Positions 62 through 62,597 of a stretch of 64,000 nt of DNA are shown here, piece after piece; positions within the stretch are counted from its first letter, which is position 1; the number at the start of each line of letters is the position of its first letter. The notes under the pieces were generated by a model. The model saw nothing but the letters and a program-made list of their open reading frames with translations. It ran no database searches and had not been told where the DNA came from. The position numbers and the translations under genes were made by a program. This DNA comes from an uncultured bacterium (GTDB taxonomy: Bacteria > Patescibacteriota > Minisyncoccia > Phycocordibacterales > DATDWN01), in the NCBI GenBank assembly GCA_903861205.1, contig CAIOTC010000020.1:133273-197272 (forward strand). The letters run 5' to 3'.

Positions 62-197
62 GTTTTTCCTCGGCTCCGCAGGCCTGAAGCTTGGACTTGT
101 CAACGACCCGGAGCGAAGCGCAGGGCTCATTGACAAGTTCAGGCTGAGGATTAGAGACTGCCGTCCGCAGGAGACGGCTGTCGGTCGAGGAAAAATA
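62..197 (+). repeat. family-A structured intergenic element, copy 1
   Basis: Variable closing stem, CCGCAGG, arms CCTGAAGCTTGGACTTGTCAACGACC and GGCTCATTGACAAGTTCAGGC around a variable hairpin, then a 3' hairpin. Confidence 0.6.
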
Positions 198-225
198 CTG
201 GGCGAGCGGACCGTTTTTAAAAATT

Positions 226-1986
226 TTACTCCAGCACCGCTTTGATGCGGCGGACACCCGCAGATACGGCTTCTTCTTTTGTGATGCGGAAGTGGCCGAG
301 AGTGCCGATGTTGTCGACATGCGGACCTCCGCAAAATTCTTTTGAGTGGGCTGTTTCGAGCGAGTCGCCGATGTAATAAATAGAAACTTCGTCGCCATAT
401 TTGTCGCCAAAAATGTGGGCAGCGCCGGTTTTTTCGGCCTCTTCTTTGTTCATTATTATTTTGTGCACCGGAAGTTTCAGCGAAATTTTTTCGTTGACCA
501 AATCTTCCACTTTCTTTTTTTCTTCGTCTGTCATTTTTCGCCCAAAATTAAAATCAAATCGCAGTCGCTCGGCGGTGATGTTACTTCCCTTCTGGGTAAT
601 TTCCGTTTGTAAAATTTCCTCCAGCGCCCGACGCAGTAAATGGGTAGCTGTGTGCAATTTTTTGTTTTCCTCACCCGCATCGGAGAGTCCGCCCTTGAAC
701 ATTCCGGCACTAGATGTTCGAGAAAGTTCCTGGTGTTTCTCCATGTCCTCGAAAAATTTCTTTTCATCAATTTCCACACCCTTTTCTTTTGCCAATTCTT
801 TCGTCATTTCCAGTGGAAAACCGTAAGTAGTAAAAAGTACAAACGGGCTTGTTCCCTTTTCAAATTCTTTCAAACCATTTTCCAAAGTTTTTTCGAATTT
901 TTCTTCTTCTTGGGATAAATTATCAAAAACAAAATTTTTGTTCTTTGAAAGTTCCGGATAAACATCACCAAACATTTCGATGACAACTTCGGCAATATCT
1001 TTGGTAAAAGATTTCATGCCCAGTTGTTTGCCATAACGTACTGCGCGGCGAATCAAGCGGCGTAAAACGTAACCCTGGCCAGTGTTGGACGGCGCGATTC
1101 CTTTTTCGTCGCCCAAAATAAACGTGGCCGCTTTCAAATGATCGGCAATAATGCGCATCGCTTTCACCAAGGTGTCACCTCGGTAAGTTTGTCCGGACAG
1201 CTTTTCAATCTTTTCGATAATCGGCCAGAAAAGTTCTGTGCGGTAATTGTCATCCAGGCCATTGACCACGGCCAAAGTTCTTTCGAGTCCCATTCCGGTG
1301 TCGACATTTTTTTGCGACAGTTGTTCGAATTTTCCGAGAGCGGTTTTATTGTATTGCATGAAAACGTCGTTCCAGATTTCGAGCCAAAGCGAATTATCAT
1401 CGTTGAAACTTTCCGGCACTTTGTCCGGCTCGCCAACCCAATAAAACATTTCCGTGTCCGGTCCGCACGGTCCCGTTTCCCCGGCCGGTCCCCACCAATT
1501 ATTTTTCTTCGGCAGTTTAGCAATTCTTTTTTCCGGAATTCCTAAACTTTTCCATGTTTCAAAAGCTTCATCATCAAAGGGCGCGTCAGAATCGCCCTCA
1601 AAAACAGAAACGGCCAGTCGATTTTTATCCAAGCCCAGCCATTTTGGTGAAGTCAAAAATTCAAAACTGAATTCAATGGCTTCTTTTTTAAAGTATTCTC
1701 CAAGCGACCAGTTGCCGAGCATTTCAAAAAAAGTGTGATGGCAGTAATCGCCGACTTCGTCGATGTCACCTGTTCTGATGCATTTCTGCACGTCGCAAAG
1801 TCGAGCTCCGGCCGGATGTTTTTCACCCAGCAAATATGGCACTAAGGGATGCATTCCAGCAGTGGTAAAAAGAACCGACGGATCATTTTCCGGCACCAAG
1901 GAAGCCGAAGGAATGACGGCGTGACCTTTTTCCTTGAAAAATTGCAGATATTTCTGGCGGATTTCGTTTGATGTCATAACTGACAT
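226..1986 (-). CDS. alaS: alanine--tRNA ligase, short form (catalytic + editing HxxxH/CxxxH domains, lacks long C-terminal C-Ala region)
   Basis: Motifs FTTAGMHPLVPYLLG, CIRTGDIDEVG, HTATHLL and CGGPHV in the 586-aa ORF. Confidence 0.92.
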   Translation of the reverse strand: MSVMTSNEIRQKYLQFFKEKGHAVIPSASLVPENDPSVLFTTAGMHPLVPYLLGEKHPAGARLCDVQKCIRTGDIDEVGDYCHHTFFEMLGNWSLGEYFKKEAIEFSFEFLTSPKWLGLDKNRLAVSVFEGDSDAPFDDEAFETWKSLGIPEKRIAKLPKKNNWWGPAGETGPCGPDTEMFYWVGEPDKVPESFNDDNSLWLEIWNDVFMQYNKTALGKFEQLSQKNVDTGMGLERTLAVVNGLDDNYRTELFWPIIEKIEKLSGQTYRGDTLVKAMRIIADHLKAATFILGDEKGIAPSNTGQGYVLRRLIRRAVRYGKQLGMKSFTKDIAEVVIEMFGDVYPELSKNKNFVFDNLSQEEEKFEKTLENGLKEFEKGTSPFVLFTTYGFPLEMTKELAKEKGVEIDEKKFFEDMEKHQELSRTSSAGMFKGGLSDAGEENKKLHTATHLLRRALEEILQTEITQKGSNITAERLRFDFNFGRKMTDEEKKKVEDLVNEKISLKLPVHKIIMNKEEAEKTGAAHIFGDKYGDEVSIYYIGDSLETAHSKEFCGGPHVDNIGTLGHFRITKEEAVSAGVRRIKAVLE

Positions 1987-2008
1987 TATGACATATTACG
2001 AAAAAAAA

Positions 2009-2416
2009 CTAAACCCCGATTTTCTTTTCTATTTTTAATACCCGCAGATCGATCAATTTCAATTGTTCCCTATTGGCTTTATTATCCGCAATATCATCAA
2101 TCCGTCTTTCAACACCTTGTATTTTATTTGTTAATCTTTCTTCAATATCTTGCAATTCTGTATGCATGTCTTGCATTTCTTTATGCACTTCGCTAAATCC
2201 TCTCGCTGTTGCTATTGCCAAATTATCTATGTCTTTTTTCAACATAACCTCCATTCTATCTGATCTTCTCGCCATCTTCTGGAATTGTAAATCATGCTCA
2301 TTTAATTTCAAATCGATCGAAGTCAGCTTAACATTTACACTATGAAAAACATCATCAATTTTTTCCAAAATAGTTTCTAAAGTTACTTCTTTATTTTTTT
2401 CCTCTTTCTTTTTCAT
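2009..2416 (-). CDS. hypothetical coiled-coil protein
   Basis: 135-aa ORF, heptad-rich, charged, no recognisable motif. Confidence 0.45.
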   Translation of the reverse strand: MKKKEEKNKEVTLETILEKIDDVFHSVNVKLTSIDLKLNEHDLQFQKMARRSDRMEVMLKKDIDNLAIATARGFSEVHKEMQDMHTELQDIEERLTNKIQGVERRIDDIADNKANREQLKLIDLRVLKIEKKIGV

Positions 2417-3065: not shown

Positions 3066-3176
3066 GATGAATTTTTAATTTAAAATTTATAATTTAAAAT
3101 GAATTTAAAATTTTCCAATTTAAAATTTAATCATTGAGAATTCAATAAAAATTCTAAATTAAAAATTGAAAATTTT
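3066..3176. repeat. AT-rich intergenic repeat (aatttttaatttaaaattt...aatgaattt...aaattcatt... family), copy 1
   Basis: Fills the whole gap between consecutive same-strand genes; inverted gaattt/aaattc core. Confidence 0.55.
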
Positions 3177-4072: not shown

Positions 4073-5233
4073 TTATTGCACAGCATCGATAACTCCGCCA
4101 CCAAGACAAACATCGTTGTCGTACAGCACAGCTGACTGGCCGGGAGCAACACCGTTTTGCGGTTCGTTAAAAAGAATATGCCAGCCATCTGATTCTTTCT
4201 CGATACTGCATTTTTGTTTTTCCTGGCGATAACGGATGCGAACGGAAAATTTCTCTGACACCCGGCGTGAAGTTTCCCAAACACCGGGTGTCGGAGAAAT
4301 TAAATGCAGATCTTTAATGACAACTTCTTTGGTCGAGAAAACCGCCTCACTTTCTGATTCTTTGTTTGCCACTGTGATAGTATTTTTTTCCAAATCTTTT
4401 GCCACCACGAAATACCGCGGATCGTTTGGTGACTTTTTAGTAATTGTAAATCCGTGACGTTCGCCGATGGTGTAAAGAATGGCGCCATCATGAAAACCAA
4501 TGACTTCCCCGTTCGTTTTCAGCACATCACCTTTTTTCGTTTTTATATAATGCGAAAGAAAATCTTTGATGTCCAAATTTTCCAAAAAACAAACGCCCTG
4601 GCTGTCTTTTTTTGTCGCAGTCGACAAACCAAATTTCTTGGCCAATTTTCTGACCTCCGGCTTGGTCAAATCTCCAATTGGAAAAAGTGTGTGAGAAAGT
4701 TGGTCCTGATCTAATGTGTACAGAAAATATGACTGATCTTTGTTTTTATCTTTTCCCTCAAGCAAATTGAAACAGGATTCATGATTCATGATGCATGAAT
4801 GGTGCTGGTTAATTATTCTTGAATCTTGACTCTTGAATCCTGAATCAACCCTTGCGTAGTGCCCCGTAGCCACGAAATCCACGCCAAGATCAAGTGCTTT
4901 TTTCAAAAACACTCCGAATTTCACATATTTGTTGCAAAAAACATCCGGATTTGGCGTTCGTCCGGCGCGATACTCGGCAATCATATAATCCACTACTTCC
5001 TTTTTGTATTCCTTTTCACAATCCAGCGTCATAAAAGGCACACCCAGCGTGGCACAAACCCGCATGGCGCTTCGTCTCTCCTCCTTCCAATCGCATGGCA
5101 ACCACTCCGGATGCCAGACCTTCAAAAACACACCAGTTACGTCATACCCCTGCTTTTTCAGCAACGCCAAAGCCACCGAGCTGTCCACTCCGCCCGAAAC
5201 TCCAACAAGGACTTTTTTGCCTTGACTTTTCAT
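4073..5233 (-). CDS. mnmA: tRNA-specific 2-thiouridylase MnmA (with an internal approx. 45-aa insertion)
   Basis: VLVGVSGGVDSSVA PP-loop, FCNKYVKFG and GHYAR motifs. Confidence 0.9.
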   Translation of the reverse strand: MKSQGKKVLVGVSGGVDSSVALALLKKQGYDVTGVFLKVWHPEWLPCDWKEERRSAMRVCATLGVPFMTLDCEKEYKKEVVDYMIAEYRAGRTPNPDVFCNKYVKFGVFLKKALDLGVDFVATGHYARVDSGFKSQDSRIINQHHSCIMNHESCFNLLEGKDKNKDQSYFLYTLDQDQLSHTLFPIGDLTKPEVRKLAKKFGLSTATKKDSQGVCFLENLDIKDFLSHYIKTKKGDVLKTNGEVIGFHDGAILYTIGERHGFTITKKSPNDPRYFVVAKDLEKNTITVANKESESEAVFSTKEVVIKDLHLISPTPGVWETSRRVSEKFSVRIRYRQEKQKCSIEKESDGWHILFNEPQNGVAPGQSAVLYDNDVCLGGGVIDAVQ

Positions 5234-6733: not shown

Positions 6734-7981
6734 TTATATCGGCAAGTTTGACGGCGCTTCGGATTTCTTCGAGCCAATGCGTGTGAACGACGGTGAGGTG
6801 GCCAAACCTCCGGCTGGGAAGTGGAAAATCGTCGCTAGTTCCTCAGTGTTCAAAACAAATGACGGTTTTTTGAATTCGTTGTAAAACCAGGCACGATGTT
6901 TATATGAGTTTAACAACTTTCTTTTTTCTTTATCGATTGTTTTCTTTGGCCTTTTTATAAACGGAAAATACTTGTATTCGCCCTCCGGATGCGATTGCGG
7001 TTTAAAACCATTCAAATTGTTTGAGTTGTAATTTTTGAAACCACCCATAATACCAACAGTATTGCCGGCGGAATAAAGGTCTTTGGACGCGGTATATATG
7101 GCACGAATACCGACATCAAAACCAAGTTTAGAAATGCTTCTTTCGATGGCGTGGACAACTTCCTCTTCACCTTTTGTTAAACGTCTAGCTGGCCCCGGCT
7201 TCCCATCTTCGCCCTTCTCGCCTTTTGTTTTTTCAAGAATTTTTTTAATTTCGTCTCCCGCGCCTTTTTCCCACTTTTTATCTATCGGTTTTCCGCCATC
7301 GGGGTTTTTATCTTCCGCTTTGTGTGCACGAATAATAATTTGAATCCATGCTTGGTGTTCTCTGCCGAGAGATCCCATGAATTCTATGAGCGGAGTCATC
7401 GGATCAATTCTGTATTCTTCCTTCGGATCTTTATCCATTCCATAATCAACATATGTTTTTATGGGAAACGGGTCAGGTTTAGTCAGAGCGAACTCTTTGG
7501 CCCACAAACTATTTTTTTCCGGATCATAACTGTAAAGTAAAGTGTAATCCGGCGCTTCATAAACTTCTATGCCGGGAAACTGCGAATACAAACTGGCTTC
7601 GATGACGTTCTTCAAACCTTTGCGAGTCCAAATGAAAAAATGGATCGAGCCATCTATGGAAACAATTTCCAAAGAATACCACGGCCTTGTTTGACCTTTG
7701 AAATTTCTAACCCACCAATCACCCTCCTGGCCTGTTTGGTGCAAACCGTTGAAAAAAATTTCCATGGCCAAAGGCGATTTGAAAATTTCACGCGGGAGTT
7801 TCATTTCCAGCAAAACATATTCTTGCTTGGCAAAAAATTTAGCCCGGACGTATGTAATCCACAACTCCCACAGCAAAATGAAAAGTAGGGCCGGCAACCA
7901 AACAAAAGAGGTTTGGTACAAAATTTTCATCGCCAAAGCAACATGCGGACTTGTGAAAAAGGAGATGAATGGCTGTAACAT
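6734..7981 (-). CDS. hypothetical membrane-anchored protein with Lys/Glu-rich low-complexity segment
   Basis: 415-aa ORF, N-terminal TM helix, no recognisable catalytic motif. Confidence 0.5.
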   Translation of the reverse strand: MLQPFISFFTSPHVALAMKILYQTSFVWLPALLFILLWELWITYVRAKFFAKQEYVLLEMKLPREIFKSPLAMEIFFNGLHQTGQEGDWWVRNFKGQTRPWYSLEIVSIDGSIHFFIWTRKGLKNVIEASLYSQFPGIEVYEAPDYTLLYSYDPEKNSLWAKEFALTKPDPFPIKTYVDYGMDKDPKEEYRIDPMTPLIEFMGSLGREHQAWIQIIIRAHKAEDKNPDGGKPIDKKWEKGAGDEIKKILEKTKGEKGEDGKPGPARRLTKGEEEVVHAIERSISKLGFDVGIRAIYTASKDLYSAGNTVGIMGGFKNYNSNNLNGFKPQSHPEGEYKYFPFIKRPKKTIDKEKRKLLNSYKHRAWFYNEFKKPSFVLNTEELATIFHFPAGGLATSPSFTRIGSKKSEAPSNLPI

Positions 7982-8035
7982 GGTCTAATTATAATACACA
8001 ACAAACAAAAAAGAAAACATGTAAATCTCGTCGAG

Positions 8036-8197
8036 CTCGCATCATTTTCGGAGCATCCGCAGACCTCGAGCATGGTTTTGTCAACGACCCTGTGATATGG
8101 GTGCCCTTTGGGCAATATCACAGGGCTCATTGACAAATTGAGGCCGAGGACAGAGAAAGCCCGTCGCTGGACGGGCTTTCGTCTCCGAAAATGATGT
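8036..8197 (+). repeat. family-A structured intergenic element, copy 2
   Basis: Same architecture; closing stem tcattttcggag/ctccgaaaatga; internal hairpins differ but remain paired. Confidence 0.6.
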
Positions 8198-8220
8198 GAG
8201 TTCGTAAGAGATTTACTCGC

Positions 8221-9270
8221 TTAAGCTACCGCGTATTTGCCTTCTTTTGTTTTCTTGAAATATTTTGGATTCTGGAGATTGACCATGATGGTATTTTCCT
8301 TGACGTATCTTTCTTTCATCACTTTCTCGATAATTTTATCTTTCGGAAGCGGGCCATTTTTCTCCAAAATTTCTTTGATGACATCCTTGACCACACCGCT
8401 CATGTATCCCCACTCTGTCAGCGCGTAAAGTCCTCGGCCAACCAGAACGAATCGCGGATCTTTGATGAGTTCATTGTGTGTCGTGGCCACATGCGCTTTC
8501 TTGCTGAAAAGTTCAGTGATCAGTTTGGCCACTTCGCGGAAATGGATCGGGCTGCCGTGTCGGCGGATAACCAAGTAAGCGTAATCGCGCATGCCTTTTG
8601 CGTTGATGTTCGATGAGCGAGACTTGCCCCATTCGCCGAGCGGATTTTTATCGATCAGCTTGGAAAGTGTCAACCAACGTTTGGCAATTTCCTCGGTTTT
8701 GTATTTGTCGGAAACATCTTTCAAATTTTCCAAAAACTTGGCAACCATGTCTGATTCGAGCAAAATTTCATCGTCTGAAAGGGTACTGTAAAGCTTGCGG
8801 AGCGACTCATGAATTTTCTTTGAAAGCTCTCGGTCCACGTGCCATCGGTGTTTGAATTCGTCATCCTCTTTTTCTTTGATGAATTCTTCGCCGACAACCA
8901 GCATAAAGTGAATATGGTTTTGAGTCGATTTATCTTTGGAAATATGCTTCAAAAAGCTTTCCTCGGAAACCATCGTGCCGAGTTCAACCATGATGTTTTT
9001 GATTTCGTCAAAGGCCGGCTTTTCCTTGGCATATTCTTTCGACTTGCGGATATTGATAATCGAATAGCTTTCGATTTGGCGTACTCTTTCGCGAGTTATT
9101 TTATATTTCTTGCCGATTGCTTCAAGCGTCATACGCTTGGTATCTGCGCCCAAGCCAAAACGTCCGTTAATGACGTCTTGCGCGCGCGCGGAAAGAACGG
9201 ACAGCATCCTCTTCACAACTTGCTTTGGCTTGAATGTTATTGTTGTTTTTTCGCTCATAAAATGTTGCAA
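8221..9270 (-). CDS. DNA-binding protein: sigma-70 region-4-like HTH plus C-terminal HARE-HTH (RpoE-delta-like) domain
   Basis: LSARAQDVINGRFGL...TLEAIGKKYKITRERVRQIE (sigma r4) and FVLVGRGLYALTEWGY (HARE-HTH). Confidence 0.6.
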   Translation of the reverse strand: MQHFMSEKTTITFKPKQVVKRMLSVLSARAQDVINGRFGLGADTKRMTLEAIGKKYKITRERVRQIESYSIINIRKSKEYAKEKPAFDEIKNIMVELGTMVSEESFLKHISKDKSTQNHIHFMLVVGEEFIKEKEDDEFKHRWHVDRELSKKIHESLRKLYSTLSDDEILLESDMVAKFLENLKDVSDKYKTEEIAKRWLTLSKLIDKNPLGEWGKSRSSNINAKGMRDYAYLVIRRHGSPIHFREVAKLITELFSKKAHVATTHNELIKDPRFVLVGRGLYALTEWGYMSGVVKDVIKEILEKNGPLPKDKIIEKVMKERYVKENTIMVNLQNPKYFKKTKEGKYAVA

Positions 9271-9355
9271 AATTATTACTAAGTGCTAATAGTTACAACG
9301 AATGTATGTTATTTGTATCATTATTGACAATTTAAGTCAAGGAGTCACGAAAACC

Positions 9356-9463
9356 GGCTCAAACAATGCTTTTCCGTCGCCAGAATATTTTTCTGCTGAA
9401 AAATTTCTTCCTGCTCGCCTCTTCACGGGCTCCGCAATGCGACGGAAAAGCATTGTTTGAGCC
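9356..9463 (+). repeat. family-B element, copy 1: 66-nt conserved core in the loop of a 25-bp stem
   Basis: Core CGTCGCCAGAATATTTTTCTGCTGAAAAATTTCTTCCTGCTCGCCTCTTCACGGGCTCCGCAATGCGACGG; stem ggctcaaacaatgcttttccg/cggaaaagcattgtttgagcc. Confidence 0.6.
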
Positions 9464-9471
9464 GATTTTTT

Positions 9472-12417
9472 CTAAACTATCACAAAGTTCAGCAACCTAT
9501 CCTGAATATGAATTGTTTTAACAATTTTTTTGCCGGACAGCCACTTATCCACATCCGGCATTTTCTGGGCCAAAGAAACCGCCTCGTCCTGCGTTTGGCC
9601 GGCCGGAACAGTCATTTGGGCTCGCACTTTGCCGTTTATTTGGACGACAAAAGATACTTCGCTTTCTTTCATTTTTTTCGGATCGGCCTTGGGCCATTTT
9701 TGCGCCGATAGAGATTTTTTATTACCAACAACCTGCCACAATTCCTCGGCAATATGCGGAGCAAACGGAGACAGAAGCAAAATCAATTTTTCGTATTGCT
9801 CGCGAGAAACTTTTTCCGCTTTTTCGAATTCATTAACCAAAATCATCATGGCACTAATAGCCGTGTTGAAATGCATCGTCTCGATATCGTCCGTAACTTT
9901 TTGGATTGTTTTGTGGAGTAGAGTTTCTGTCGTAGCTAACGCCTTATTTTTTTCATTGGCAAGGGTGCCCCTTGCCACTTTGAATTGCAGTCGCCACACG
10001 CGTTCCAAAAAGCGTCGCGATCCGGAAATGCTGTTCGTATCCCACGCGATGGCCTGATCAAACGGACCCATAAACATTTCGTAAACGCGCAAAGTATCGG
10101 CGCCGTACATTTTGACAATATCGTCCGGATTTATGACATTTCCGCGCGATTTTGACATTTTTTCGCCATTTTCAGCCAAAATCATGCCGTGCGAGGTGCG
10201 TTTTTGGTAAGGCTCCTTTGTCGGCACGAGTTTCTGATCATACAAAAATTTGTGCCAAAATCGCGAATAAAGCAGATGCAAAGTGGTGTGTTCCATGCCG
10301 CCGTTGTACCAATCAACAGGAGTAAAATATTTTAAATTTTTTGGATCAGCAAATTTTTTGCTATTTTTTGGATCGGCGTAGCGCAGGTAGTACCACGACG
10401 AACCGGCCCAGTTTGGCATTGTGTCCGTTTCTCGCCTGGCTTTGCCGCCACATTGCGGACATTTAGTATTAACCCACGATGAAATGTCAGCCAGCGGAGA
10501 CTCGCCAGTGTCAGTCGGTTTGTAATTTTTCACCTTTGGCAAAACAAGCGGCAAATCTTTTTCCGGAATAGCGATCCAGCCGGGGTTTGCAAGCTCACCT
10601 TCTGAAAATTCTGATTTTGAATTTTTATTGGAAATTGGAAATTGGAAATTGGAAATTCGTTTTTTGCAATTTTCGCAAAAAACGGTCGGTATCGGCTCGC
10701 CCCAATATCTCTGGCGCGAAAAAATCCAATCGCGCAGTTTGAAAGTTTCCACCCATTTTCCTCCGGCGAATTCGGTGATTTTCTTTTTTACATCTTCGCT
10801 AGACAATCCATTGAATTCTCCAGAATTTATCGAAACACCTTCATCGCAAAAAGCATGAACTGGATTATTAAATCGATCGTCCCAAATAAAAAATTCCGCG
10901 CATTTCAAATTTTTGTCTGATTTCAATTCCTGCCAGCTCATCCAAGCGACTTCGTGCTTATTTTTTTCATCTTCAGTCACAATGGCTCTTTTTTCACTAG
11001 CCAACTCGAAAACTATCGTGCTGAAATGTGCCTTTCTGTTTTCATCTTTATGCTCAGCGTAAAAATGACACTCCACCGGACCGCCGAGAGTTTTGATGTA
11101 TTTCAATTCGCTGTAACCTGTCTCCTCCAAAATTTCGCGTCGAGCAGCCTCAATTACGTCTTCACCTCCCTCAACTCCGCCGGTCACAAATGTCGTCCAT
11201 GGAAATTTTTTCCAGCGCAAAGTCAAAATCTTTTTTGTTTTTGGATCGATGATGATGGCGTGAATGGCATTTCTTTCGACGGTTTTTTTGTCCGCTCTCG
11301 GAAGTTCAGTTTGGTCAGTTACTTTTGGCACAATCACTTCGCGAATCGGCAAATTGTACTTTTGGGCAAATTCAAAATCGCGATCATCATGAGCCGGCAC
11401 GGCCATGACGGCACCCGTGCCATAGTCAGCCAAAACGTAGTCGGCAATGAAAATCGGAACCAGCTCACCATTGGCCGGATTTATTACCCTGATGCCTTTC
11501 ATTTCCACGCCGGTTTTTTCTTTCTTGTCATCCATCCTGTCAATGGCCGATTTGGTCGAAACGGATTTTATATAATTTTCGACTTCTTGTCTGTTTTTCA
11601 AAAATTCCAAAAGTTTGCCGACCATTTTGTGTTCGGGAGCCAGCACTATATATGTCACCCCAAAAAGCGTATCAGGGCGCGTGGTAAAAACTTTTATTTT
11701 ATCCTTTTGGCATTGGCAGAAAAAATCAATCTCGGCGCCTTCGCTTCGGCCGATCCAATTTCTCTGCTGCGTTTTTATTTGTGGCAAATAGTCGACGAGG
11801 TCGAGATCCTTGTCCAATCTGTCGGCGTATTTGGTGATAGCCAGCATCCACTGCTCCTTTTCGCGCTTTTCCACCGGCGTGCCGCACCTCTCGCAACAGC
11901 CACCCACCACCTCCTCGTTGGCCAAACCGATTTTATCTTTCGGACACCAATTAATCGACATTTTCTTTTTGTAAGCCAAACCATTTTTGAACATCTGCAG
12001 AAAAATCCACTGCGTCCATTTGTAATATTTTGGGTCAGTCGTGTTTATTTCCCGCGACCAGTCAAAAGACATTCCCAATCCTTTAAATTGTTTTCTGAAA
12101 TTATCGGTATTCGTTTTTGTGACAATGGCTGGTTGAATCCCAGTTTTAATCGCATAATTTTCCGTCGGCAAACCGAAAGCATCCCAACCAATTGGAAAAA
12201 GAACATTAAAATCTTCCATCCTGCGTTTACGAGAGATAACATCCATTGCGGTATAACCGCGAACATGACCGGTGTGAAGTCCGTCACCGGACGGGTACGG
12301 AAATTCCATCAAAGAATAATACTTTTTGCCTTTGCTTTTGGCCTGGAAAGTTTTTTTTCTTTCCCATTCTTTTTGCCATTTTTTTTCAATAGATAGATGG
12401 TTGTACTCTTTTGGCAT
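9472..12417 (-). CDS. leuS: leucine--tRNA ligase carrying an inserted Nudix-hydrolase domain (residues approx. 378-500)
   Basis: HTGHVRGYT (HIGH), TTRPDT editing motif, KMSKS; Nudix box GGVEGGEDVIEAARREILEETGY in the insertion. Confidence 0.93.
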   Translation of the reverse strand: MPKEYNHLSIEKKWQKEWERKKTFQAKSKGKKYYSLMEFPYPSGDGLHTGHVRGYTAMDVISRKRRMEDFNVLFPIGWDAFGLPTENYAIKTGIQPAIVTKTNTDNFRKQFKGLGMSFDWSREINTTDPKYYKWTQWIFLQMFKNGLAYKKKMSINWCPKDKIGLANEEVVGGCCERCGTPVEKREKEQWMLAITKYADRLDKDLDLVDYLPQIKTQQRNWIGRSEGAEIDFFCQCQKDKIKVFTTRPDTLFGVTYIVLAPEHKMVGKLLEFLKNRQEVENYIKSVSTKSAIDRMDDKKEKTGVEMKGIRVINPANGELVPIFIADYVLADYGTGAVMAVPAHDDRDFEFAQKYNLPIREVIVPKVTDQTELPRADKKTVERNAIHAIIIDPKTKKILTLRWKKFPWTTFVTGGVEGGEDVIEAARREILEETGYSELKYIKTLGGPVECHFYAEHKDENRKAHFSTIVFELASEKRAIVTEDEKNKHEVAWMSWQELKSDKNLKCAEFFIWDDRFNNPVHAFCDEGVSINSGEFNGLSSEDVKKKITEFAGGKWVETFKLRDWIFSRQRYWGEPIPTVFCENCKKRISNFQFPISNKNSKSEFSEGELANPGWIAIPEKDLPLVLPKVKNYKPTDTGESPLADISSWVNTKCPQCGGKARRETDTMPNWAGSSWYYLRYADPKNSKKFADPKNLKYFTPVDWYNGGMEHTTLHLLYSRFWHKFLYDQKLVPTKEPYQKRTSHGMILAENGEKMSKSRGNVINPDDIVKMYGADTLRVYEMFMGPFDQAIAWDTNSISGSRRFLERVWRLQFKVARGTLANEKNKALATTETLLHKTIQKVTDDIETMHFNTAISAMMILVNEFEKAEKVSREQYEKLILLLSPFAPHIAEELWQVVGNKKSLSAQKWPKADPKKMKESEVSFVVQINGKVRAQMTVPAGQTQDEAVSLAQKMPDVDKWLSGKKIVKTIHIQDRLLNFVIV
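9957..9979 (-). repeat. in-frame palindromic mini-insert GTGGCAAGGGGCACCCTTGCCA inside leuS (encodes KVARGTLAN)
   Basis: Identical 23-24 nt shared with cysS and recR; perfect 10-bp stem with a 3-nt loop. Confidence 0.75.
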
Positions 12418-13408: not shown

Positions 13409-13527
13409 AACACAAAACAAAAACAAACATAATTTTGGAGCACGGATATTTTTCTGCTGAAAAATTCCTCAAGCCTCCGCCCGCCGGCGTCCGGAGTCTC
13501 CAAAATTATGTTTGTTTTTGTTTTGTT
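13409..13527 (+). repeat. family-B element, copy 2 (divergent core, 30-bp perfect stem)
   Basis: Stem aacacaaaacaaaaacaaacataattttggag / ctccaaaattatgtttgtttttgttttgtt; loop keeps ATTTTTCTGCTGAAAAATT. Confidence 0.55.
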
Positions 13528-18130: not shown

Positions 18131-18871
18131 AATTTCATTTCATATTTTTCATATTCATTTCCATAGGACGAGCCCCCCTTTCCAGAAAAAAGCTGGAAGT
18201 GGTTATTTTTTCCACGAGATGCCAAACTAGAAAGAAGAGACGCCAAACACGTATGTCGGCTGATTACATTCACATTTGTGCAACCAACACACCTATTGAG
18301 TTCAAAATAGAAATTCTGTGTCCAGCTGGTTGCTTTCACACAATTCCTTTGTTCTTCGTTTTCAAGCAACATCGTTTTATAAATCAAACTCCCATCAACT
18401 CAGTTTCGCATCACTGATCCTTTCCAGCTGTAGTCAAAATCTTGAAAGCGAAGGCACCATTGAAGGTGGACGAAACTTTCAGAAAACCCACTACAAATCC
18501 CGTGTGAAAGCAACGGGCACTTTAACGAAATAGTTGGTCACTTAAATCCCTCACTCTTTAGACTGCCTGGCAGCTTGGGCGACTCGTCGGGGCTCGCTGT
18601 TCCCCAGGCTTTCGCAAGAATGAACGATTCAAATGCTTATGCCATAATTGGCATTTCTTCGATGTTTCAAAGCCACGCTGTTTCTACTGACTTATCCCCA
18701 CCATTTGCAGGACTTTTGATATGGTTGTCCTGATCCATATTTTGAGTTTGAATTGTAAAAAACACATCCACTAAGTCAGCCGAGAAAGCCAACTTTTTTC
18801 TATATAATAGTTAAATATTCATATTTATGGCTTAAACATTGCCTTTTTAGCAAGTTTTACCATTTGGTTTT

Positions 18872-18887
18872 AATTATACTAAAGTCC
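18872..18887 (-). promoter_or_regulatory. promoter motif GGGACTTTAGTATAAT (copy 2), facing a 740-nt ORF-free region
   Basis: Identical 16-mer. Confidence 0.45.
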
Positions 18888-19016
18888 CAAATACTTCTCC
18901 TAATTTTCAGCCAAGCCTGTGGAATTTCAATCCGTGGGAAAGCTAACTGAGACCGATTCGGAGTTTTCCGAGTGATCAAAATAATTCAAAAAACACAAAA
19001 AATTTCAGAATTCGTC

Positions 19017-55400: not shown

Positions 55401-55844
55401 TTATTCCGCTTCAATAATTACTGTCACTTCAGCTCTTTTGCCCAGAGCTTCGACTGTCACTTTGTGTTCTCCTACAGTTTTGAGCGGCTTTTCCAAAACA
55501 ACCGTTTCCGGATCGAGGTTCAAGTGTGTTTGTTTGAAAATTTCTTCAATCAAAGTTTCCTTGCCGATGCCGGCGAACAAGTGGCCTTTTTCGTTGGCCT
55601 TGCCTTTAATGGTCACCGTCGCAGCGCGCAAAGCGTCCAAACTTTTGACCAAAAGTTCCGCCTGAATTTTTTTCTCGGCGCCTTCTTTTGATTTCATCTG
55701 TTCGATTTTTTGGATCGACTGCGGAGTAGCCGCCTCCACCAATCCGCGCGGAATGAGAAAATTGAGCGCGTGTCCGTCGGAAACGTCTTTAATATCGTAC
55801 TTGTGACCAAGTTTAGGAACTTCTTTGAGTAATATGACTTTCAT
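55401..55844 (-). CDS. rplI: 50S ribosomal protein L9
   Basis: MKVILLKEVPKLG...ALNFLIPRGLA. Confidence 0.9.
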   Translation of the reverse strand: MKVILLKEVPKLGHKYDIKDVSDGHALNFLIPRGLVEAATPQSIQKIEQMKSKEGAEKKIQAELLVKSLDALRAATVTIKGKANEKGHLFAGIGKETLIEEIFKQTHLNLDPETVVLEKPLKTVGEHKVTVEALGKRAEVTVIIEAE

Positions 55845-55957
55845 AATATTAGGAATAATTTTTAATTTTTAATTTAGAATTTTTAATGAATTTTTAATTT
55901 TTAAGTTTTGTCATTTTAAATTCATTTTAAATTAAAAATTTTAAATTTTAAATTATT
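55845..55957. repeat. AT-rich intergenic repeat, copy 5
   Basis: Between rplI and ctpA. Confidence 0.55.
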
Positions 55958-57310
55958 TTACTTATCTAATATTTCCACCGCTTTTTCCATCTGCGTATCT
56001 TCCCCTTTCAAAAACTTTGCCTCGTCCAACTTGACCACCACGTCCGGCGTCAAACCTTGGTGTGAAATCGAAATGCCGTTCGGTGTCAGCCATTTAGCGA
56101 TGGTTACTTTGAGTGATGTGTTGTCGGTGATCGACACCAATTCCTGGACCGAACCTTTGCCGAACGATTGCTCGCCGACTAAAGTGGCCACGCCATTGTC
56201 ATGCAAAGCGCCAGCCAAAATTTCCGAAGCGCTGGCCGATCCACCGTCGATGAGCACTACCAATTTGAGTTGGTCGCTGAAAATGTTGTAACCTTTGCTG
56301 CGATAAACGGTGTTGTCGGTGTTGTTGCGGAAGTCCTCGCTGACAACCGTCTTGCCCGCCGGCAAAAACCAGCTGGCCATATCGATCGCCGCTTCCAAAT
56401 ATCCGCCGGGGTTGCCACGCAAGTCGATAATCAGTTTTGATTTGCCCGACTCGACAAACGATCGCAAAGAGTTGCGAAAAAGATCAGGAGAAATAGCGTT
56501 GAAACTGTACAAATGAATAACATACACGTCGCCAGTGTTGTCCGGACTCTTTCCGGACGCGCCAGAGTTGCTTGACAGTGCGCCTTTGGTTTCGGTGTCG
56601 ATGGTTGGCAGGTCGATAACATCGCGAACGATGGAAATTTCAAACGGATCTGCCACACCGTCGCGAACGATGAGTAGTTTGACAGTCGTGCCTTTTGGAC
56701 CACGAATCAGTTTGATGGAATCTTCGGTGGAAAGTTTAGCTGTCGGCGTTTTGTCAACCTGAACCACTTTGTCGCCCGCTTTCACTCCGGCTTTTTGGGC
56801 CGGCGAACCTTTCAGCGGAGAAATGACGGTGAGGACGTTGTCGCGAATGCCGACTTCCATGCCAACACCCTCGAAGTTACCGCTGATTTCTTCATTGAAA
56901 TTTTTGTTTTCAACGGGCGGGAAAAAAGTTGTGTAAGGATCGCCCAGAGAATCCACCATGCCGGAAATCGCGCCCCAAACGCGGGCTTGATCATCCACGT
57001 TAGTTGTGGTCGTGCTGTTTGTTGGTACATATTTTTCGTTGATCGTCTGCCAAGCTTTCCAAAACGGCGCAAAGTCAACATTGGTCACGCCATTTGCGTC
57101 TTTGTCAGTTACATTCGCTACTTTCGCTTCGGCCGGTGTGTAATCGCGTCCCAGAAAAAAACCGGAGGAAAAAATGGCAAGCACCACAACCGCGCCAACA
57201 AAATATTTCGGCTGTTTCGCCAACCCCCAAACTTTCAACGCACCATTTTTAATTTTCGCTTTTATATTCTGCATTCCGTTCATTATCGCAAAGTTTAACG
57301 AAGTGGTCAA
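55958..57310 (-). CDS. ctpA: carboxyl-terminal processing protease (S41 family)
   Basis: PDZ (GVKAGDKVVQVD), DLRGNPGGYL, LIDGGSASASEI. Confidence 0.85.
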   Translation of the reverse strand: MTTSLNFAIMNGMQNIKAKIKNGALKVWGLAKQPKYFVGAVVVLAIFSSGFFLGRDYTPAEAKVANVTDKDANGVTNVDFAPFWKAWQTINEKYVPTNSTTTTNVDDQARVWGAISGMVDSLGDPYTTFFPPVENKNFNEEISGNFEGVGMEVGIRDNVLTVISPLKGSPAQKAGVKAGDKVVQVDKTPTAKLSTEDSIKLIRGPKGTTVKLLIVRDGVADPFEISIVRDVIDLPTIDTETKGALSSNSGASGKSPDNTGDVYVIHLYSFNAISPDLFRNSLRSFVESGKSKLIIDLRGNPGGYLEAAIDMASWFLPAGKTVVSEDFRNNTDNTVYRSKGYNIFSDQLKLVVLIDGGSASASEILAGALHDNGVATLVGEQSFGKGSVQELVSITDNTSLKVTIAKWLTPNGISISHQGLTPDVVVKLDEAKFLKGEDTQMEKAVEILDK

Positions 57311-57326
57311 ACTTTAACTTACAACA

Positions 57327-57444
57327 CAAAATCAGAAAGAATCACTTTTCCGTCGCCAGAATAATTTTCTGCTGAAAATTTTCTTCCTGCTCATGTCTTC
57401 ACGCATTCCGCAATGCGCCGGAAAAGTGATTCTTTCTGATTTTG
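57327..57444 (+). repeat. family-B element, copy 4
   Basis: Core about 95 % identical to copy 1; stem caaaatcagaaagaatcacttttccg/cggaaaagtgattctttctgattttg. Confidence 0.6.
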
Positions 57445-57568
57445 TTAGTGGTGATTTTGTATTCGTATTTCAAAGTTTAACCTTGAAAAAAGTTGTCACA
57501 GAAAAACCCGCTCACCGTAGTGGCAGGAATTCCTGTCGCTGGTGGGCGGGGGGTCATATAACGATGAG

Positions 57569-59022: not shown

Positions 59023-59133
59023 TCGCTTCGCTCAAATTTTTAATTTAAAATTTAGAATTTAAATTGAATTTAAAATTTCTAAATTTTGAAATTGAAAATT
59101 AATTGCAAAATTTTAAATTCTAAATTTTAAATT
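59023..59133. repeat. AT-rich intergenic repeat, copy 6
   Basis: Between the CorA-like gene and cysS. Confidence 0.55.
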
Positions 59134-60564
59134 ATGTCTGAACTATATTTACACAACACCTTAACAGGAAAGAAAGATAAATTTACTCCCATCACCGATG
59201 GCTTCGTCGGCATTTATTCCTGCGGGCCGACGGTGTATTGGAACCAGCACATCGGGCACATGTACGCTTACGTTCAGTGGGATTGTTTGGTGCGTTCGCT
59301 GAATTACCTCGGTTACAAAACAAAATGGGTCATGAACTTGACCGATGTCGGACACCTGACCGGCGACAATCTCGGCGATGCCGACACCGGCGAAGACAAA
59401 ATGGAAAAAGGGGCCGAGCGAGAAGGCAAAACTGTTTGGGAAATTGCTGACAAATATATTGCGCAATTTAAAGAGAGTATGACGCTTCTCAACATCACCA
59501 CGCCTGATGTTTTGTGCCGTGCCACCGAACACATTCCCGAGCAGATCGAACTCATCAAAAAAATCGATAAAAACGGTTTTGCTTATCCGACCAAAACCGG
59601 ACTTGTTTTCGACACGCAAAAATTTCCCAGCTACGCTGATTTCGCTCATTTGAATCTGGAGGACCAGCACGCCGGCAGCCGCGTGGAAGTCGACGAAGAA
59701 AAGAAAAAGCCGTGGGATTTTTTGCTTTGGATTACCAACCAGCCGAATCACATTATGAAATGGGAATCGCCGTGGGGCGTCGGCTTTCCCGGCTGGCACA
59801 TCGAGTGCACGGCCATGTCGACCAAGTACCTCGGCGATACTTTTGATATTCACACCGGAGGCAAGGAACACATTCCAGTCCATCACACCAACGAAATCAC
59901 CCAAGCTTTTGGAGCGTTCGGACATGGAACGGCCAACTACTGGCTACACAACGAATGGATGAATATTGACGGACAAAAAATCAGCAAATCGCTCGGCAAT
60001 TCCATTTTGGTTTCGGATTTGATGGCGCGCGGATTCGATCCACTTTCCTTGCGATATTTAATAATGACCACGCACTACAAAACCGGCCTCAATTTCACTT
60101 GGGAAAGTTTGGAAGCGGCGCAGACAGCGTATTTCAAATTGCGCGATTTTGTTGCTGATTTGAAAGACGAAGTGGCAAGGGGCACCCTTGCCACAAATAC
60201 TGAAGTTTTTGAAAAAAATAAAAAAGATTTTTCGGAATGCCTCGCCGATGATTTAAACATCGCCAAAGGCATCGGGATTGTCTGGCAAATCGTCAAGTCA
60301 AAAGAAATCGACGACAAAACAAAACTGGATTTGATTTTAGATTTCGACAAAGTACTGGGACTTAAGCTAGACGAAGCAAGTTTACGACACTTAGTGTCGT
60401 ATAATGTAGAAATTCCAGCTGAGGTTGCCACACTCGTTTCCGCCCGCGACAACGCCCGCGCCGAAAAAGATTTTGCCAAAAGCGACGAGTTGCGCGCCAA
60501 AATCGAATCACTTGGATTTGAAGTAAAAGATACTCCGGAAGGAACAAGAGTTAAAAAAATATGA
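59134..60564 (+). CDS. cysS: cysteine--tRNA ligase
   Basis: [14 protein letters not shown] (HIGH), KISKSLGN (KMSKS), Zn-binding Cys. Confidence 0.93.
60171..60194 (+). repeat. in-frame palindromic mini-insert inside cysS (encodes EVARGTLAT)
   Basis: agtggcaaggggcacccttgccac. Confidence 0.75.
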
Positions 60565-60565
60565 C

Positions 60566-60934
60566 TCAGCGTTTGCTGAGTCTTTTTTTACCGCCGAACT
60601 TTTTATGTTCTCTGAATTCAATACAGCCCTTTGGTAGAACAGTAATCAATTCTCTTTTTACTTCACAATAAACGATCGGCAAAGGAACAACGATACCATT
60701 TCTGTTTGTATGATTAACCATAACACACGTTGGTATGCAGCCATCACGCTTGACGGCGCACATCGAGCCACAATGTTTTCTGTTTCTGGCAATAACGAAG
60801 TACCTCCCTTTTTCAATCCGACTGACTATTTTCCTGGCGTCTGATGGATCCAGAACTAGTCTGTGATGTTCCAGAGCTCTTTTGATAAAATGCTCCAAAT
60901 GCGTTTCCGGGAAATTCACTTGATTATCCGCCAT
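60566..60934 (-). CDS. hypothetical protein
   Basis: 122-aa ORF with several Cys and a basic C-terminus. Confidence 0.4.
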   Translation of the reverse strand: MADNQVNFPETHLEHFIKRALEHHRLVLDPSDARKIVSRIEKGRYFVIARNRKHCGSMCAVKRDGCIPTCVMVNHTNRNGIVVPLPIVYCEVKRELITVLPKGCIEFREHKKFGGKKRLSKR

Positions 60935-61037
60935 AAAACCTCCTTAATATAGGCTACGCTTTTCTCCCCAGCTTGTCCACCCATTTTGCACTTCTGTCTA
61001 GTGGCGCGGGAAAATCCGGGCGTGGTAGAATGCTTGC

Positions 61038-62429
61038 ATGGTTCAGACAATCAACTCGTTTCAAATGGGAAATCCACGACTGCGAATTCCGCCGCAAAAC
61101 CTCGAGGCAGAGATGGCTTTTCTCGGCTCGGTCATGTTGCGGCCCGAAGCGCTTTACGACGTGACCGATATCGTCTCGCCGGATTCTTTTTACTCCGACA
61201 AACATCGCATCATTTTCGAAACAATGATGGAACTTTTCAGCAAGCACGCACCGATCGACATGCTTTCCGTTTCAGCCAAGCTTTCCGAAAAAGGTTGGCT
61301 CGATCAAATCGGTGGCAACACTTATTTGACCGAGTTGGTTTCCGTCGTGCCATCATCCGCCAACATCGCCTATTACGCCCAGATCATTCAGAAAAAATAT
61401 ATGATGCGCCGGTTGATCGAAGCTTCCGATCATATCAACCAAATCGGCTACGATGAAAATCAGGAACTCGAGGAGTCACTGGACCAAGCCGAGAAAAAAC
61501 TTTTCGAGGTGACCAACTTTACCACCTCGCACAAATTTACTCCGCTCAAGGACGAACTTGACGAAGCCTGGGAACGCCTCGACAGATTGCACAACGACAC
61601 AGGCGGCATGCGCGGAATTTCCACCGGTTTTGCAGAACTGGACAACAAACTTTCCGGATTTCAGAAATCGGATTTGATTATTTTGGCGGCCAGACCTTCG
61701 ATGGGAAAAACTTCGTTGGCTCTCGATATCGCTCGCCAGAGCGCGGTCAACCACAACACTTCCGTCGGTATTTTTTCGCTCGAAATGAGTTCGCAGCAGC
61801 TCGTTGACCGCATGATGGCCGCACAAGCCAACGTTGACGCTTGGAAAATGCGCACAGGAAAACTTTCCATTCAAACGGACTTCGAACCGATCCGCGAAGC
61901 GATGAATAAACTCTCGGCCGCGCCGATTTATATCGACGACCAGCCGGGAAATAATATTTTGAAAATGCGCTCCATTGCCCGCCGTTTGAAAAGCGAAAAG
62001 AGTTTGGATTTGATCATTGTCGACTACCTTCAACTAATGGTTCCGCAAACCAAAAACGACAACGTCGTTCAGCAAATTACTGAGATTTCCCACTCGCTCA
62101 AAAATCTGGCGCGCGAGTTGAACATTCCGGTGCTGGCGCTTTCCCAACTTTCTCGAGCCGTCGAACAACGCGGCGGCCGTCCTCGTCTGTCCGACTTGCG
62201 CGACTCCGGATCCATCGAGCAAGATGCCGACATCGTCATGTTTATTCATCGCGAGGATAAATATAAAGAGGAAAGCGAAAAAACAAACATCGCCGAAATT
62301 TTGATCGAGAAGCACCGCAACGGCGAGACGGGTAAAGTGGATTTGTATTTCAACGACAAAAAGGCGACGTTTCAGAGTATGGATAAAAGTAAGTATGGCG
62401 GCGCGGAGAAGGAGTTTTCGGAGTTCTAG
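61038..62429 (+). CDS. dnaB: replicative DNA helicase DnaB
   Basis: LPPQNLEAEMAFLGSVM, GARPSMGKTSLALD Walker A, RecA-like motifs. Confidence 0.92.
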   Translation: MVQTINSFQMGNPRLRIPPQNLEAEMAFLGSVMLRPEALYDVTDIVSPDSFYSDKHRIIFETMMELFSKHAPIDMLSVSAKLSEKGWLDQIGGNTYLTELVSVVPSSANIAYYAQIIQKKYMMRRLIEASDHINQIGYDENQELEESLDQAEKKLFEVTNFTTSHKFTPLKDELDEAWERLDRLHNDTGGMRGISTGFAELDNKLSGFQKSDLIILAARPSMGKTSLALDIARQSAVNHNTSVGIFSLEMSSQQLVDRMMAAQANVDAWKMRTGKLSIQTDFEPIREAMNKLSAAPIYIDDQPGNNILKMRSIARRLKSEKSLDLIIVDYLQLMVPQTKNDNVVQQITEISHSLKNLARELNIPVLALSQLSRAVEQRGGRPRLSDLRDSGSIEQDADIVMFIHREDKYKEESEKTNIAEILIEKHRNGETGKVDLYFNDKKATFQSMDKSKYGGAEKEFSEF

Positions 62430-62431
62430 AC

Positions 62432-62597
62432 GGCACAAATTTTTGAAAAAGTATTTTATTTTTGTCGCCACTCGCTCTCTCCTGCGGAGAGCTCGTTCTC
62501 GTCCTCGGCCTGAACTTGTCAATGAGCCAGGCTCCAAAAGCCTGGTCGTTGACAAGTCCAAGCTTCAGGCCTGCGGATGCGCCAAAAATAAAATACT
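62432..62597 (-). repeat. family-A structured intergenic element, copy 3 (reverse orientation) between dnaB and recR
   Basis: Reverse complement matches copies 1 and 2; closing stem aagtattttatttttg/caaaaataaaatactt. Confidence 0.6.

Follow-up and report, generated by a model that had tools for sequence, protein, structure and literature searches.

The locus raises the question of what kind of element its recurring intergenic hairpins are. The DNA analysed here, called the window, is a 64-kb stretch (positions 133,273 to 197,272) of contig CAIOTC010000020.1 from an uncultured member of the Patescibacteria. In a preliminary description, three copies of a structured intergenic element, i.e., Family A, were noted in it and were considered as a functional structured RNA or protein-bound DNA, or as a MITE, i.e., a miniature transposable element with inverted repeats. 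We propose a family of Patescibacteria three-way-junction hairpin elements, which is apparently previously undescribed.

Fold and strand polarity of Family A

The three copies were confirmed at their sites, and their real extents are larger than first noted. The scores below are those of R1, a covariance model made from 40 copies; P1 is the closing stem, P2 and P3 are the two arms inside it, and J1/2 and J2/3 are junction strands.

46 to 212, plus strand: copy A, whole element, 123 bits; P1 5' arm 46-75, J1/2 CCGCAGG 76-82, P2 82-144, J2/3 145-159, P3 160-178, P1 3' arm 183-212
8021 to 8216, plus strand: copy B, whole element, 144 bits; P1 5' arm 8021-8054, CCGCAGA 8057-8063, P2 8064-8144 with a long tip, J2/3 8145-8156, P3 8157-8178, P1 3' arm 8181-8216
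62430 to 62617, minus strand: copy C, whole element, 137 bits; P1 5' arm (read on the minus strand) 62579-62611, core 62469-62578, P1 3' arm 62436-62468

In each copy, a P1 of 30-33 bp is closed around a three-way junction. The junction strands AUCCGCAG and CGAGGAC are conserved, and CC of one pairs with GG of the other. The junction also bears P2, a sequence-conserved helix with a free tip, and P3, a hairpin with a C-GCNG-G loop. Copies A, B, and C are alignable across the entire core, and the exact P2 arms GGCTCATTGACAA and TTGTCAACGACC occur within the window only in these copies, while their outer stems are mutually unrelated. The stem halves, the CCGCAGG motif and the conserved P2 arms quoted earlier were all present, as were the P2 tips and 3' hairpins that differ between copies and are paired in each. 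Predicted folding energies lay between -92 and -104 kcal/mol; compared with dinucleotide shuffles, z ranged from -10.5 to -11.7, and 0 of 200 shuffles reached such stability. Outward of copy A, pairing continues to 31-227 but is weaker, and the 33-nt P1 arms of copy C showed 97% complementarity in an inverted-repeat scan. The Family A elements contain no open reading frame (ORF).

The intergenic settings were as noted before. Copy A follows a short-form alaS (226-1986, minus strand), with 14 nt between the stop of this gene and the element. Copy B sits between the stop of a sigma-like ORF (8221-9270, minus strand) and the start of ORF 6734-7981 (minus strand), and copy C was placed between dnaB and recR. 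Each window copy is antisense to both of its neighbour genes.

Further copies were collected by a pattern scan for exact TTGTCAACGAC-N10-40-GCTCATTGACAA, with one genome per species. The scan gave 51 loci, i.e., approximately 44 complete elements and 7 chance matches within coding DNA. RNAalifold on a 40-sequence alignment predicted 28 pairs, 17 of them with changes on both sides. When P1 was added in register, paired cells reached 84.2% (70.5% in shuffles) and the covariation score was 0.419 (0.177 in shuffles). None of 500 shuffles reached this score, and slid registers gave a maximum of 0.204. Base pairs altered on both sides numbered 40 of 51 in this alignment, and covariation was seen in lower P2, in P3 and in the 2-bp CC/GG pairing of the junction strands. 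The invariance of upper P2 in the 40-sequence set was imposed by the exact search pattern; the diverged copies found with R1 covary in upper P2 as well (TCGTCAA/TTGACGA and GTGTCAAAAAC/GTTTTTGACGA). The conserved three-armed structure is real. Related genomes hold many more copies with covariation, which was one of the checks set in the preliminary description. The window copies A-C (123-144 bits) show the whole set of features that defines the family, i.e., a long P1, the AUCCGCAG/CGAGGAC junction, P2, P3 with the C-GCNG-G loop, and covariation.

The strand on which the fold is selected was read from the stem mismatches. A strand-symmetric count was used, which aligned each 5' arm with the reverse-complemented 3' arm and gave both transition types the same score. 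It gave 38 sense-type (G.U) and 7 antisense-type (A.C) mismatches (p = 3e-6). Two other counts were set aside. A fold-based G.U/A.C count of 47:3 was discarded, as its antisense-strand control gave 30:25, and a fixed-register count made on the alignment suffered from outer-stem columns that were misaligned. The G.U to A.C-type ratio was 14:1 in copies co-oriented with the host gene and 10:1 in opposed copies. Because the wobble bias holds in both groups, selection acts on the fold of the strand proper to the element, either as RNA or as single-stranded DNA, regardless of host transcription. Relative to tandem neighbours, about 12 elements were sense and 11 antisense; with this ratio, and with window copies antisense to both neighbours, a riboswitch or 5' leader was rejected. 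Of the first reading as a structured functional RNA or protein-bound DNA, the structured, conserved and non-coding nature has held, on covariation and z-scores; the active form may be RNA or single-stranded DNA.

The same data bear on whether a protein simply recognises duplex DNA or a cruciform. A nucleoid, segregation or uptake protein could bind the imperfect palindrome TTGTCAAC...GTTGACAA, and this would suit an upper P2 that is kept in sequence, not in pairing alone, across Patescibacteria classes, and an orientation that is random relative to genes. However, the distance between half-sites varies from 15 to 57 nt, and the covarying helices and strand-specific wobbles are unexplained by duplex recognition. 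The P2 invariance is also partly a product of the exact-match pattern, and diverged copies covary there. A duplex or cruciform site is consequently regarded as very unlikely.

Insertion, module exchange and distribution

The closing stems, which differ in every copy, had been read as compensatory changes. The differences are not point-mutation covariation; orthologues keep their stems, and paralogues reassort scaffold and core. At the site of copy C, the closest relatives have a hairpin-free spacer of just 3-25 nt between the dnaB stop and recR (at least 14 of 24 examined). Hairpin-free sites were found in loci L052 (DnaB identity 87%) and L053 (81%), and alignment against these two defined the inserted DNA.

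62440 to 62642: inserted DNA of about 200 nt in the ancestral dnaB-recR spacer, comprising copy C and 31 nt (62612-62642) that reach the recR ATG (62643)

The short hairpin-free spacer of the relatives indicates that copy C is an insertion of about 200 nt, closing stem included. Loci L054 and L056 form another empty/filled pair, with a related element at the same dnaB-recR junction; in this pair, the entire hairpin was inserted together with its 17-bp outer repeat. No target-site duplication was seen at the two resolvable filled/empty pairs (L054/L056 and window/L052). Elements generally occupy short spacers, usually starting about -15 to +25 nt from a stop codon.

Several other origins of the stems were considered and rejected. 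A terminator hairpin that was present first and was then split by insertion does not apply to copy C and L056, in which relatives are hairpin-free and the whole stem was inserted. In the fetched loci, no "empty carrier" hairpins with the outer module described below were found. Inverted duplication of the target flank was dismissed, as neither L056 arm is present in the empty site L054. Variable stems as guides were also dismissed; the arms have no convincing match elsewhere in the window or in the fetched loci.

The dnaB-recR spacer ranges from about -40 to +850 nt among relatives, and it holds other hairpin inserts. Unrelated inserts lie at this junction, about 30-95 nt past the end of dnaB in L055 and L060 and about 15-125 nt past it in L057. 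One insert has a 15-bp stem, AAAATGAAAAAGAGA/TCTCTTTTTCATTTT, with a loop that carries CCACTAAG; another, of 110 nt, is bounded by CCCGTTAGAGAT/ATCTCTAACGGG and overlaps the recR start. Hairpin elements thus seem to gather at this junction as at a hotspot.

After arrival, elements are kept. Orthologous copies were 96-99% identical, outer stem included, while flanking coding DNA was 82-89% identical. For L022 and L033, identity was 96% in the core, 96% in the outer stem and 83-86% in the flanks; for L014 and L040, it was 98%, 96% and 89%, respectively. Fast in-place turnover of stems was rejected, since orthologues keep them. Copies in different genomes showed another pattern. In L015, L047, L051, and L059, the cores are 90-95% identical, including the unconstrained P2 tip and P3 stem, and the outer stems are unrelated; the likeness ends at the T-run/A-run. 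Conversely, two elements 1.2 kb apart in L008 have P1 and junction in common, with 40 of 41 nt matching on the 5' side and 37 of 38 on the 3' side, and unrelated P2 and P3. In these sequence comparisons, scaffold and core modules are shown to reassort discretely between elements, which then reside for long under purifying selection. The closing stems are not the product of slow compensatory drift, because the stem is inserted whole, orthologues keep it and modules reassort. Among the 51 copies, no pair of cores within one genome was at least 90% identical, so there was no sign of a recent burst.

The count of three copies in the window was understated. An inverted-repeat scan found four further elements of the same design, i.e., Family B, which makes 7 superfamily members in 64 kb, or about 1.2 kb of the window (2%).

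9350 to 9469, minus strand: Family B copy with a short P2, 31-nt arms and a 58-nt core
13412 to 13526, minus strand: Family B copy with perfect 29-nt arms
39429 to 39562, minus strand: Family B copy with the canonical outer module; the Family A model scores it weakly (28 bits)
57326 to 57445, minus strand: Family B copy with 31-nt arms of 97% complementarity

The stems of these copies, 29-31 bp, are mutually unrelated and enclose a 58-nt core. On the minus strand, the plan of Family B is GGCGCAU-UGCGGA, short P2, GAGCAGGAAG, P3, GGCGAC; that of Family A copy C is, for comparison, GGCGCAU-CCGCAGG, P2, CGAGGAC, P3, GGCGAC. All six Family B copies examined fold better, by 4-10 kcal/mol, on the strand bearing the plan than on its complement. 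Because Families A and B have opposite polarity along the same stretch of the window, no single replication-strand rule can apply to the superfamily.

A conserved outer module joins these families. It consists of a covarying stem, AAAUCUC/GAGAUUU, and an internal loop, 5' GUY-GA-R / 3' Y-GA-G-AAA, which may be K-turn-like. In other genomes, it encloses Family A, Family B and several further core types. Many copies, not all, have it in canonical form, among them window copy B (AAATCTCGTCGAG ... GTAAGAGATTT) and, of Family B, the 39429 copy. Family A is thus a single branch within a superfamily built from modules. P1 measures 22-48 bp across elements, and the ancestral P1 is composed of an outer stem, a conserved purine-rich internal loop, a variable helix, a U4-5/A4-5 run and a GC clamp.

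Smaller motifs accompany the elements. The sequence (C)CACTA(A/G) recurs directly 5' of P1 on the sense strand, even where the stems are unrelated, for example at window positions 62612-62619 (minus strand) and 57446-57451 and in L007, L017, L020, L027, L035, and L046. A small hairpin module with a GGAGGUAAUCC tip also recurs, as a P2 tip, as the P2 of another core family and as a nested insert. As a nested insert, it interrupts the Family A copies of L001 (the intact twin is in L047) and L010. Its sites were as follows.

L001, about 4870-4915: module with the GGAGGUAAUCC tip
L010, about 790-850: the same module
L035, about 7125-7145: the same module as a P2 tip
L008, 3807-3961: the same module
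L027, 292-447: the same module

Within this tip, AAGGAGGTAATCC resembles what we take, from the universal 1541R primer sequence, to be the complement of the 16S rRNA 3' end; a 16S rRNA was sought in the fetched loci and none was present. A further hairpin, CTTGGACAC-NNN-GTGTCCAAG, was seen just upstream of Family A copies in two genomes (L027, about 2700-2725, and L050, in minus-strand orientation). A T-run follows it in L027. This hairpin may represent a conserved terminator or a further small repeat.

Nearly all scan loci belong to Patescibacteria, i.e., Saccharibacteria, Zambryskibacteria, Paceibacterota, Minisyncoccia, and Parcubacteria. Four loci (L002, L010, L039, and L045) are labelled as a metagenome-assembled genome of "Nitrospira sp. 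SF2_9" and lie on contigs of 3.6-9.4 kb. The Family A elements on these contigs are typical of Patescibacteria, and one of them has the canonical outer module; the contigs are probably mis-binned Patescibacteria. In 907 kb of relatives' loci, which were picked by DnaB similarity and not by motif, R1 found 6 copies, compared with 3 in the window, and some genomes are dense, e.g., L007 with 3 copies within 6 kb. From these densities, the distribution is patchy, with lineage-specific expansions. Synteny with L026 and L036 places the window itself in a genome of Parcubacteria type. The 95-nt "mini elements" were false positives within the dnaB coding sequence. The motif was not found in viral contigs, and the annotated phage and plasmid collections searched gave no match.

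With these data, the reading as a MITE can be judged. A MITE in ordinary decay, or a terminator hairpin without any particular biology, would be short, palindromic, multi-copy, intergenic and beside gene 3' ends, as these elements are, and the elements are indeed small (120-220 nt) and without an ORF. However, no target-site duplication (two sites), no near-identical copies within a genome and no termini common to all copies were found; the outer stems in the window are unrelated, and the outer module encloses different cores. No autonomous, transposase-encoding relative, i.e., no ORF-bearing version, was present in 1.34 Mb of fetched DNA. Conservation exceeds that of flanking genes, and the junction is conserved beside covarying helices. 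As described below, a T-run after the stem is rare and canonical terminators lie elsewhere in the window. The MITE part of the preliminary description is thus not supported, and mere decay of a MITE or terminator is the most improbable of the explanations considered here.

Mode of action and comparison with known systems

Transcription signals were searched around the elements. Upstream -10-like hexamers gave 3.31 matches at the sense position and 3.21 at the mirror position (p = 0.44), i.e., no enrichment, and consensus promoter scans found nothing near the window copies. An own sigma-70 promoter was rejected, as there was no excess over the mirror control and the consensus scans were empty; a discrete self-promoted transcript, as envisaged at first, is unsupported by the promoter test. 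A T-run within 15 nt after P1 was found in only 6 of 34 copies, on which ground an intrinsic terminator was rejected. The internal T-run is located 5' of the clamp on both strands. Because canonical terminators exist elsewhere in the window, the elements are not simply the terminators of the genome.

60563 to 60582: canonical bidirectional terminator (hairpin and T-run)
63607 to 63626: canonical bidirectional terminator (hairpin and T-run)
62609 to 62636, plus strand: promoter-like TTGCTT-N16-TATAAT, ending 6 nt before the recR ATG

The first bases of the promoter-like site at recR (62609-62611) derive from the hairpin end. The ancestrally coupled dnaB-recR pair is now parted by a 33-bp hairpin and this site. 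An outward promoter as a family-wide property was rejected; no excess beyond AT-richness was seen, and copy C is a single case. At window 7981-8002 and 62631-62645, TATAAT ends 6 nt upstream of the ATG of ORF 6734-7981 (minus strand) and of recR, respectively, with no Shine-Dalgarno sequence. This arrangement suggests leaderless mRNAs in the organism.

The elements might form a family of independent, trans-acting small RNA genes with their own non-consensus promoter, which maybe serve as a protein sponge or scaffold. GGA motifs do occur repeatedly, as GAGGAC in J2/3 and as CGCNGGA in the P3 loop, and conserved unpaired junction and loop nucleotides stand beside covarying helices. The polarity tracks the element and not the host gene, selection in place is purifying, and the CACTA motif is recurrent just 5' of P1. 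These points are opposed by the promoter results and by the scarcity of T-run tails given above. Furthermore, a P1 of 30-48 bp far exceeds that of known trans-acting small RNAs, and dozens of diverged, module-reassorted paralogues are atypical of a small RNA gene. It is reasonable to consider such a gene family improbable.

The explanation that we prefer, tentatively and at somewhat less than even chances, is a structured RNA element, resident and under selection, whose transcription would be shared with the neighbour genes, with P1 marking a transcript boundary and the junction and P2 binding a conserved factor. As shown above, elements arrive whole in very short intergenic spacers and then reside there for long, evolving more slowly than the neighbour genes. 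The element would act as RNA via co-transcription, which we infer because no own promoter was seen. The near-perfect P1 duplex, formed in either orientation, would mark a transcript boundary, where it could stop 3' exonucleases and/or be cut by RNase III, so that the neighbouring cistrons are uncoupled. The polarity-specific junction and P2 would be the platform for a conserved trans-acting factor; this factor would explain the sequence conservation across Patescibacteria classes and the strand-specific wobble pairs.

Several points weigh against this explanation. The RNA as active form, the boundary function and the partner factor are inferred. With about 12 sense and 11 antisense copies and read-through only, half of the copies would be transcribed as the "wrong" strand. 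Read-through without an own promoter, for which the hexamer count gave no sign, does not explain a host-independent polarity well, and this is the main weakness. The polarity itself is uneven; the G.U bias was 22:1 in the conserved inner stem, where inheritance from a common ancestor may partly explain it, and in the outer, variable stem just 16:6 (p = 0.05). Since the boundary role could be filled by a plain hairpin, what is proposed for the core is conjecture. The conservation in place is based on three orthologue sets. Finally, single-stranded DNA can likewise form stable G.T wobbles, tandem G.A pairs, and mini-hairpins of the GCGAAGC type.

This last point leads to a mobile element that is active as single-stranded DNA. 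Its sense strand would fold and be recognised by a hairpin-specific enzyme, with the junction and P2 as the binding and cleavage site. Candidate enzyme types are an HUH/Y1 transposase, as in REPIN/RAYT and derivatives of IS200/IS605, or a tyrosine recombinase, as in integron attC. Such an element would account for insertion polymorphism without target-site duplication, for polarity that is independent of host transcription, for the lack of an own promoter, and for patchy copy number (3 in 64 kb here and 6 in 907 kb of relatives). The small hairpin nested within the L001 and L010 copies would fit too, as would GCGAAGC and C-NNA-G tip loops, which are very stable DNA mini-hairpins. On the other side, the 1.34 Mb of fetched DNA holds no transposase- or ORF-bearing relative and no candidate enzyme, and the lack of core pairs at least 90% identical within a genome leaves no trace of recent transposition. 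Conservation in place above that of coding flanks is unexpected for a purely selfish element, and the opposite polarity of Families A and B does not follow a single replication-strand rule. A mobile element of this kind is rather unlikely, yet it is a serious competitor of the preferred explanation.

Comparison with known systems was made in databases and literature. In Rfam 15, the window gave no match at gathering score, including RF01691, hammerhead, twister-sister, Y RNA, and 6S, so the comparison with Rfam called for earlier returned no known family. The nearest likeness was to the Bacillus-plasmid RNA motif, RF01691, for copy A P2 (UGUCAAC...GAGCGAAG...GUUGACA; 20.1 bits, E = 0.037). However, this is below the gathering score of 31, covers 51 nt of P2 only and has no counterpart in copies B and C, and the plasmid collection showed no blastn match for such a link. 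A literature search, motif itself included, found nothing relevant on such elements. Two RNA classes were rejected by their features. A hammerhead would need CUGANGA and GAAA junction strands and a cleavage-site strand; a GAAA strand is absent between P3 and P1, and there was no Rfam match; J2/3 reads CUGAGGA in about 7 of 40 aligned copies (read by eye, not script-counted) and CCGAGGA in most. A retron non-coding RNA, which has flanking a1/a2 inverted repeats and a reverse transcriptase gene beside it, does not agree with the neighbours (alaS, the sigma-like gene, dnaB, and recR) or with multiple copies, and no reverse transcriptase gene adjoins the window copies.

By analogy, the elements work most like the small palindromic intergenic repeats, i.e., ERIC, REP/REPIN, Correia, and RPE. 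ERIC/IRU are imperfect palindromes of about 127 bp in Enterobacteria and Vibrio. They are conserved between species, are long-resident rather than actively jumping, tolerate internal insertions and are thought to form RNA hairpins that affect mRNA fate. Like them, the present elements are small, non-coding, intergenic palindromes in either orientation. However, there is no sequence similarity, and ERIC has common terminal repeats and a TA target duplication, whereas here the stems are copy-specific, no duplication is seen and a conserved three-way junction carries exchangeable modules.

REP/REPIN/BIME are intergenic hairpin repeats that are vertically inherited with slow duplication, show strand-specific recognition as single-stranded DNA and are reported to affect mRNA 3' ends. 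The elements here are likewise intergenic and hairpin-forming, but REP are GC-rich palindromes of 20-40 nt with one sequence per genome and a RAYT gene. The size (120-220 nt), the branched core and the copy-specific stems do not fit, so REP/REPIN was rejected; no associated gene was found in the fetched loci. Correia (NEMIS) of Neisseria and RPE of Rickettsia are MITE-like palindromes that are co-transcribed with genes; Correia elements are RNase III substrates and can create promoters. Copy C, which splits dnaB and recR and is followed by a promoter-like site, resembles them. The 26-bp terminal repeats, TA duplication and hundreds of near-identical copies of Correia do not hold here, however, and outward promoters are not general among the present elements.

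Integron attC sites are imperfect palindromes directly after stop codons, which act as a folded single strand of fixed polarity, keep structure over sequence and have a variable terminal structure. Their ends are conserved (RYYYAAC / GTTRRRY) and their centre is variable, whereas the reverse, i.e., variable ends and a conserved centre, is found here. They stand in cassette arrays of one orientation, with intI; the present elements stand singly by housekeeping genes in both orientations. The GTCAAC/GTTGAC here is one pyrimidine short of the box, and attC was rejected. Compared with other palindromic repeats, these elements are unusual in their three-way-junction core, in long copy-specific stems acquired by reassortment and in conservation above neighbour genes.

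A wider proposal is a new modular class of structured RNA, or of strand-specific nucleic-acid "cassette", of Patescibacteria. In it, a common scaffold (P1 and junction), recognised by a conserved factor of the host or encoded by an element, would carry exchangeable P2/P3 payloads, and new payloads would pass between resident scaffolds by recombination, possibly after DNA uptake. Some payloads, e.g., the GGAGGUAAUCC tip, may be complementary to the 16S rRNA 3' end. We consider this speculative and rather unlikely.

Further features of the window and significance

Other repeats were found in the window. AT-only arrays (AATTTTTAATTTAAAATTTAGAATTT and variants) are intergenic and form long imperfect palindromes with arms of up to 48-50 nt and 70-79% complementarity. 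These arrays may act as promoters or UP-like elements, or they may form a repeat family of their own. A GC-rich palindrome of 21-25 bp, (A)GTGGCAAGGGTGCCCCTTGCCAC(T), occurs three times, each within a long ORF, and was flagged as "terminator-like" in the scan.

3070 to 3167: AT-only array upstream of a gene
33780 to 33873: AT-only array upstream of a gene
35133 to 35215: AT-only array upstream of a gene
36476 to 36608: AT-only array upstream of a gene
55831 to 55973: AT-only array upstream of a gene
59034 to 59134: AT-only array upstream of a gene
9957 to 9977, plus strand: (A)GTGGCAAGGGTGCCCCTTGCCAC(T) in a 981-aa ORF
60172 to 60194, minus strand: (A)GTGGCAAGGGTGCCCCTTGCCAC(T) in a 476-aa ORF
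63050 to 63074, minus strand: (A)GTGGCAAGGGTGCCCCTTGCCAC(T) in recR

The region 18131-19016, about 890 nt, is poor in ORFs and gave no Rfam or tRNA match. It contains an inverted repeat of 13 bp whose halves are 160 nt apart (18329-18514), and it has no relation to the hairpin superfamily. No tRNA genes were found in the window. Nearly all genes between 226 and 57310 are encoded by the minus strand, whereas the plus strand encodes those from 58033 onward. Because the gene strand switches there, a replication origin may lie near 57.4-58.0 kb, with the Family B copy 57326-57445 at the switch.

Patescibacteria, also known as the candidate phyla radiation (CPR), have genomes among the smallest and most streamlined of bacteria. 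To our knowledge, almost nothing is known of their non-coding RNAs, transcript boundaries and mobile DNA. That approximately 2% of a streamlined window is spent on hairpins kept more faithfully than neighbour genes suggests that the elements do something for the cell. The family and its ready covariance model are a target for metatranscriptomics and biochemistry, and the element could mark Patescibacteria contigs in bins, e.g., the "Nitrospira" contigs. The family is also a natural system for studying module exchange among hairpin elements. If the core binds a conserved factor, finding this factor could reveal a CPR-specific pathway of RNA processing or recombination.

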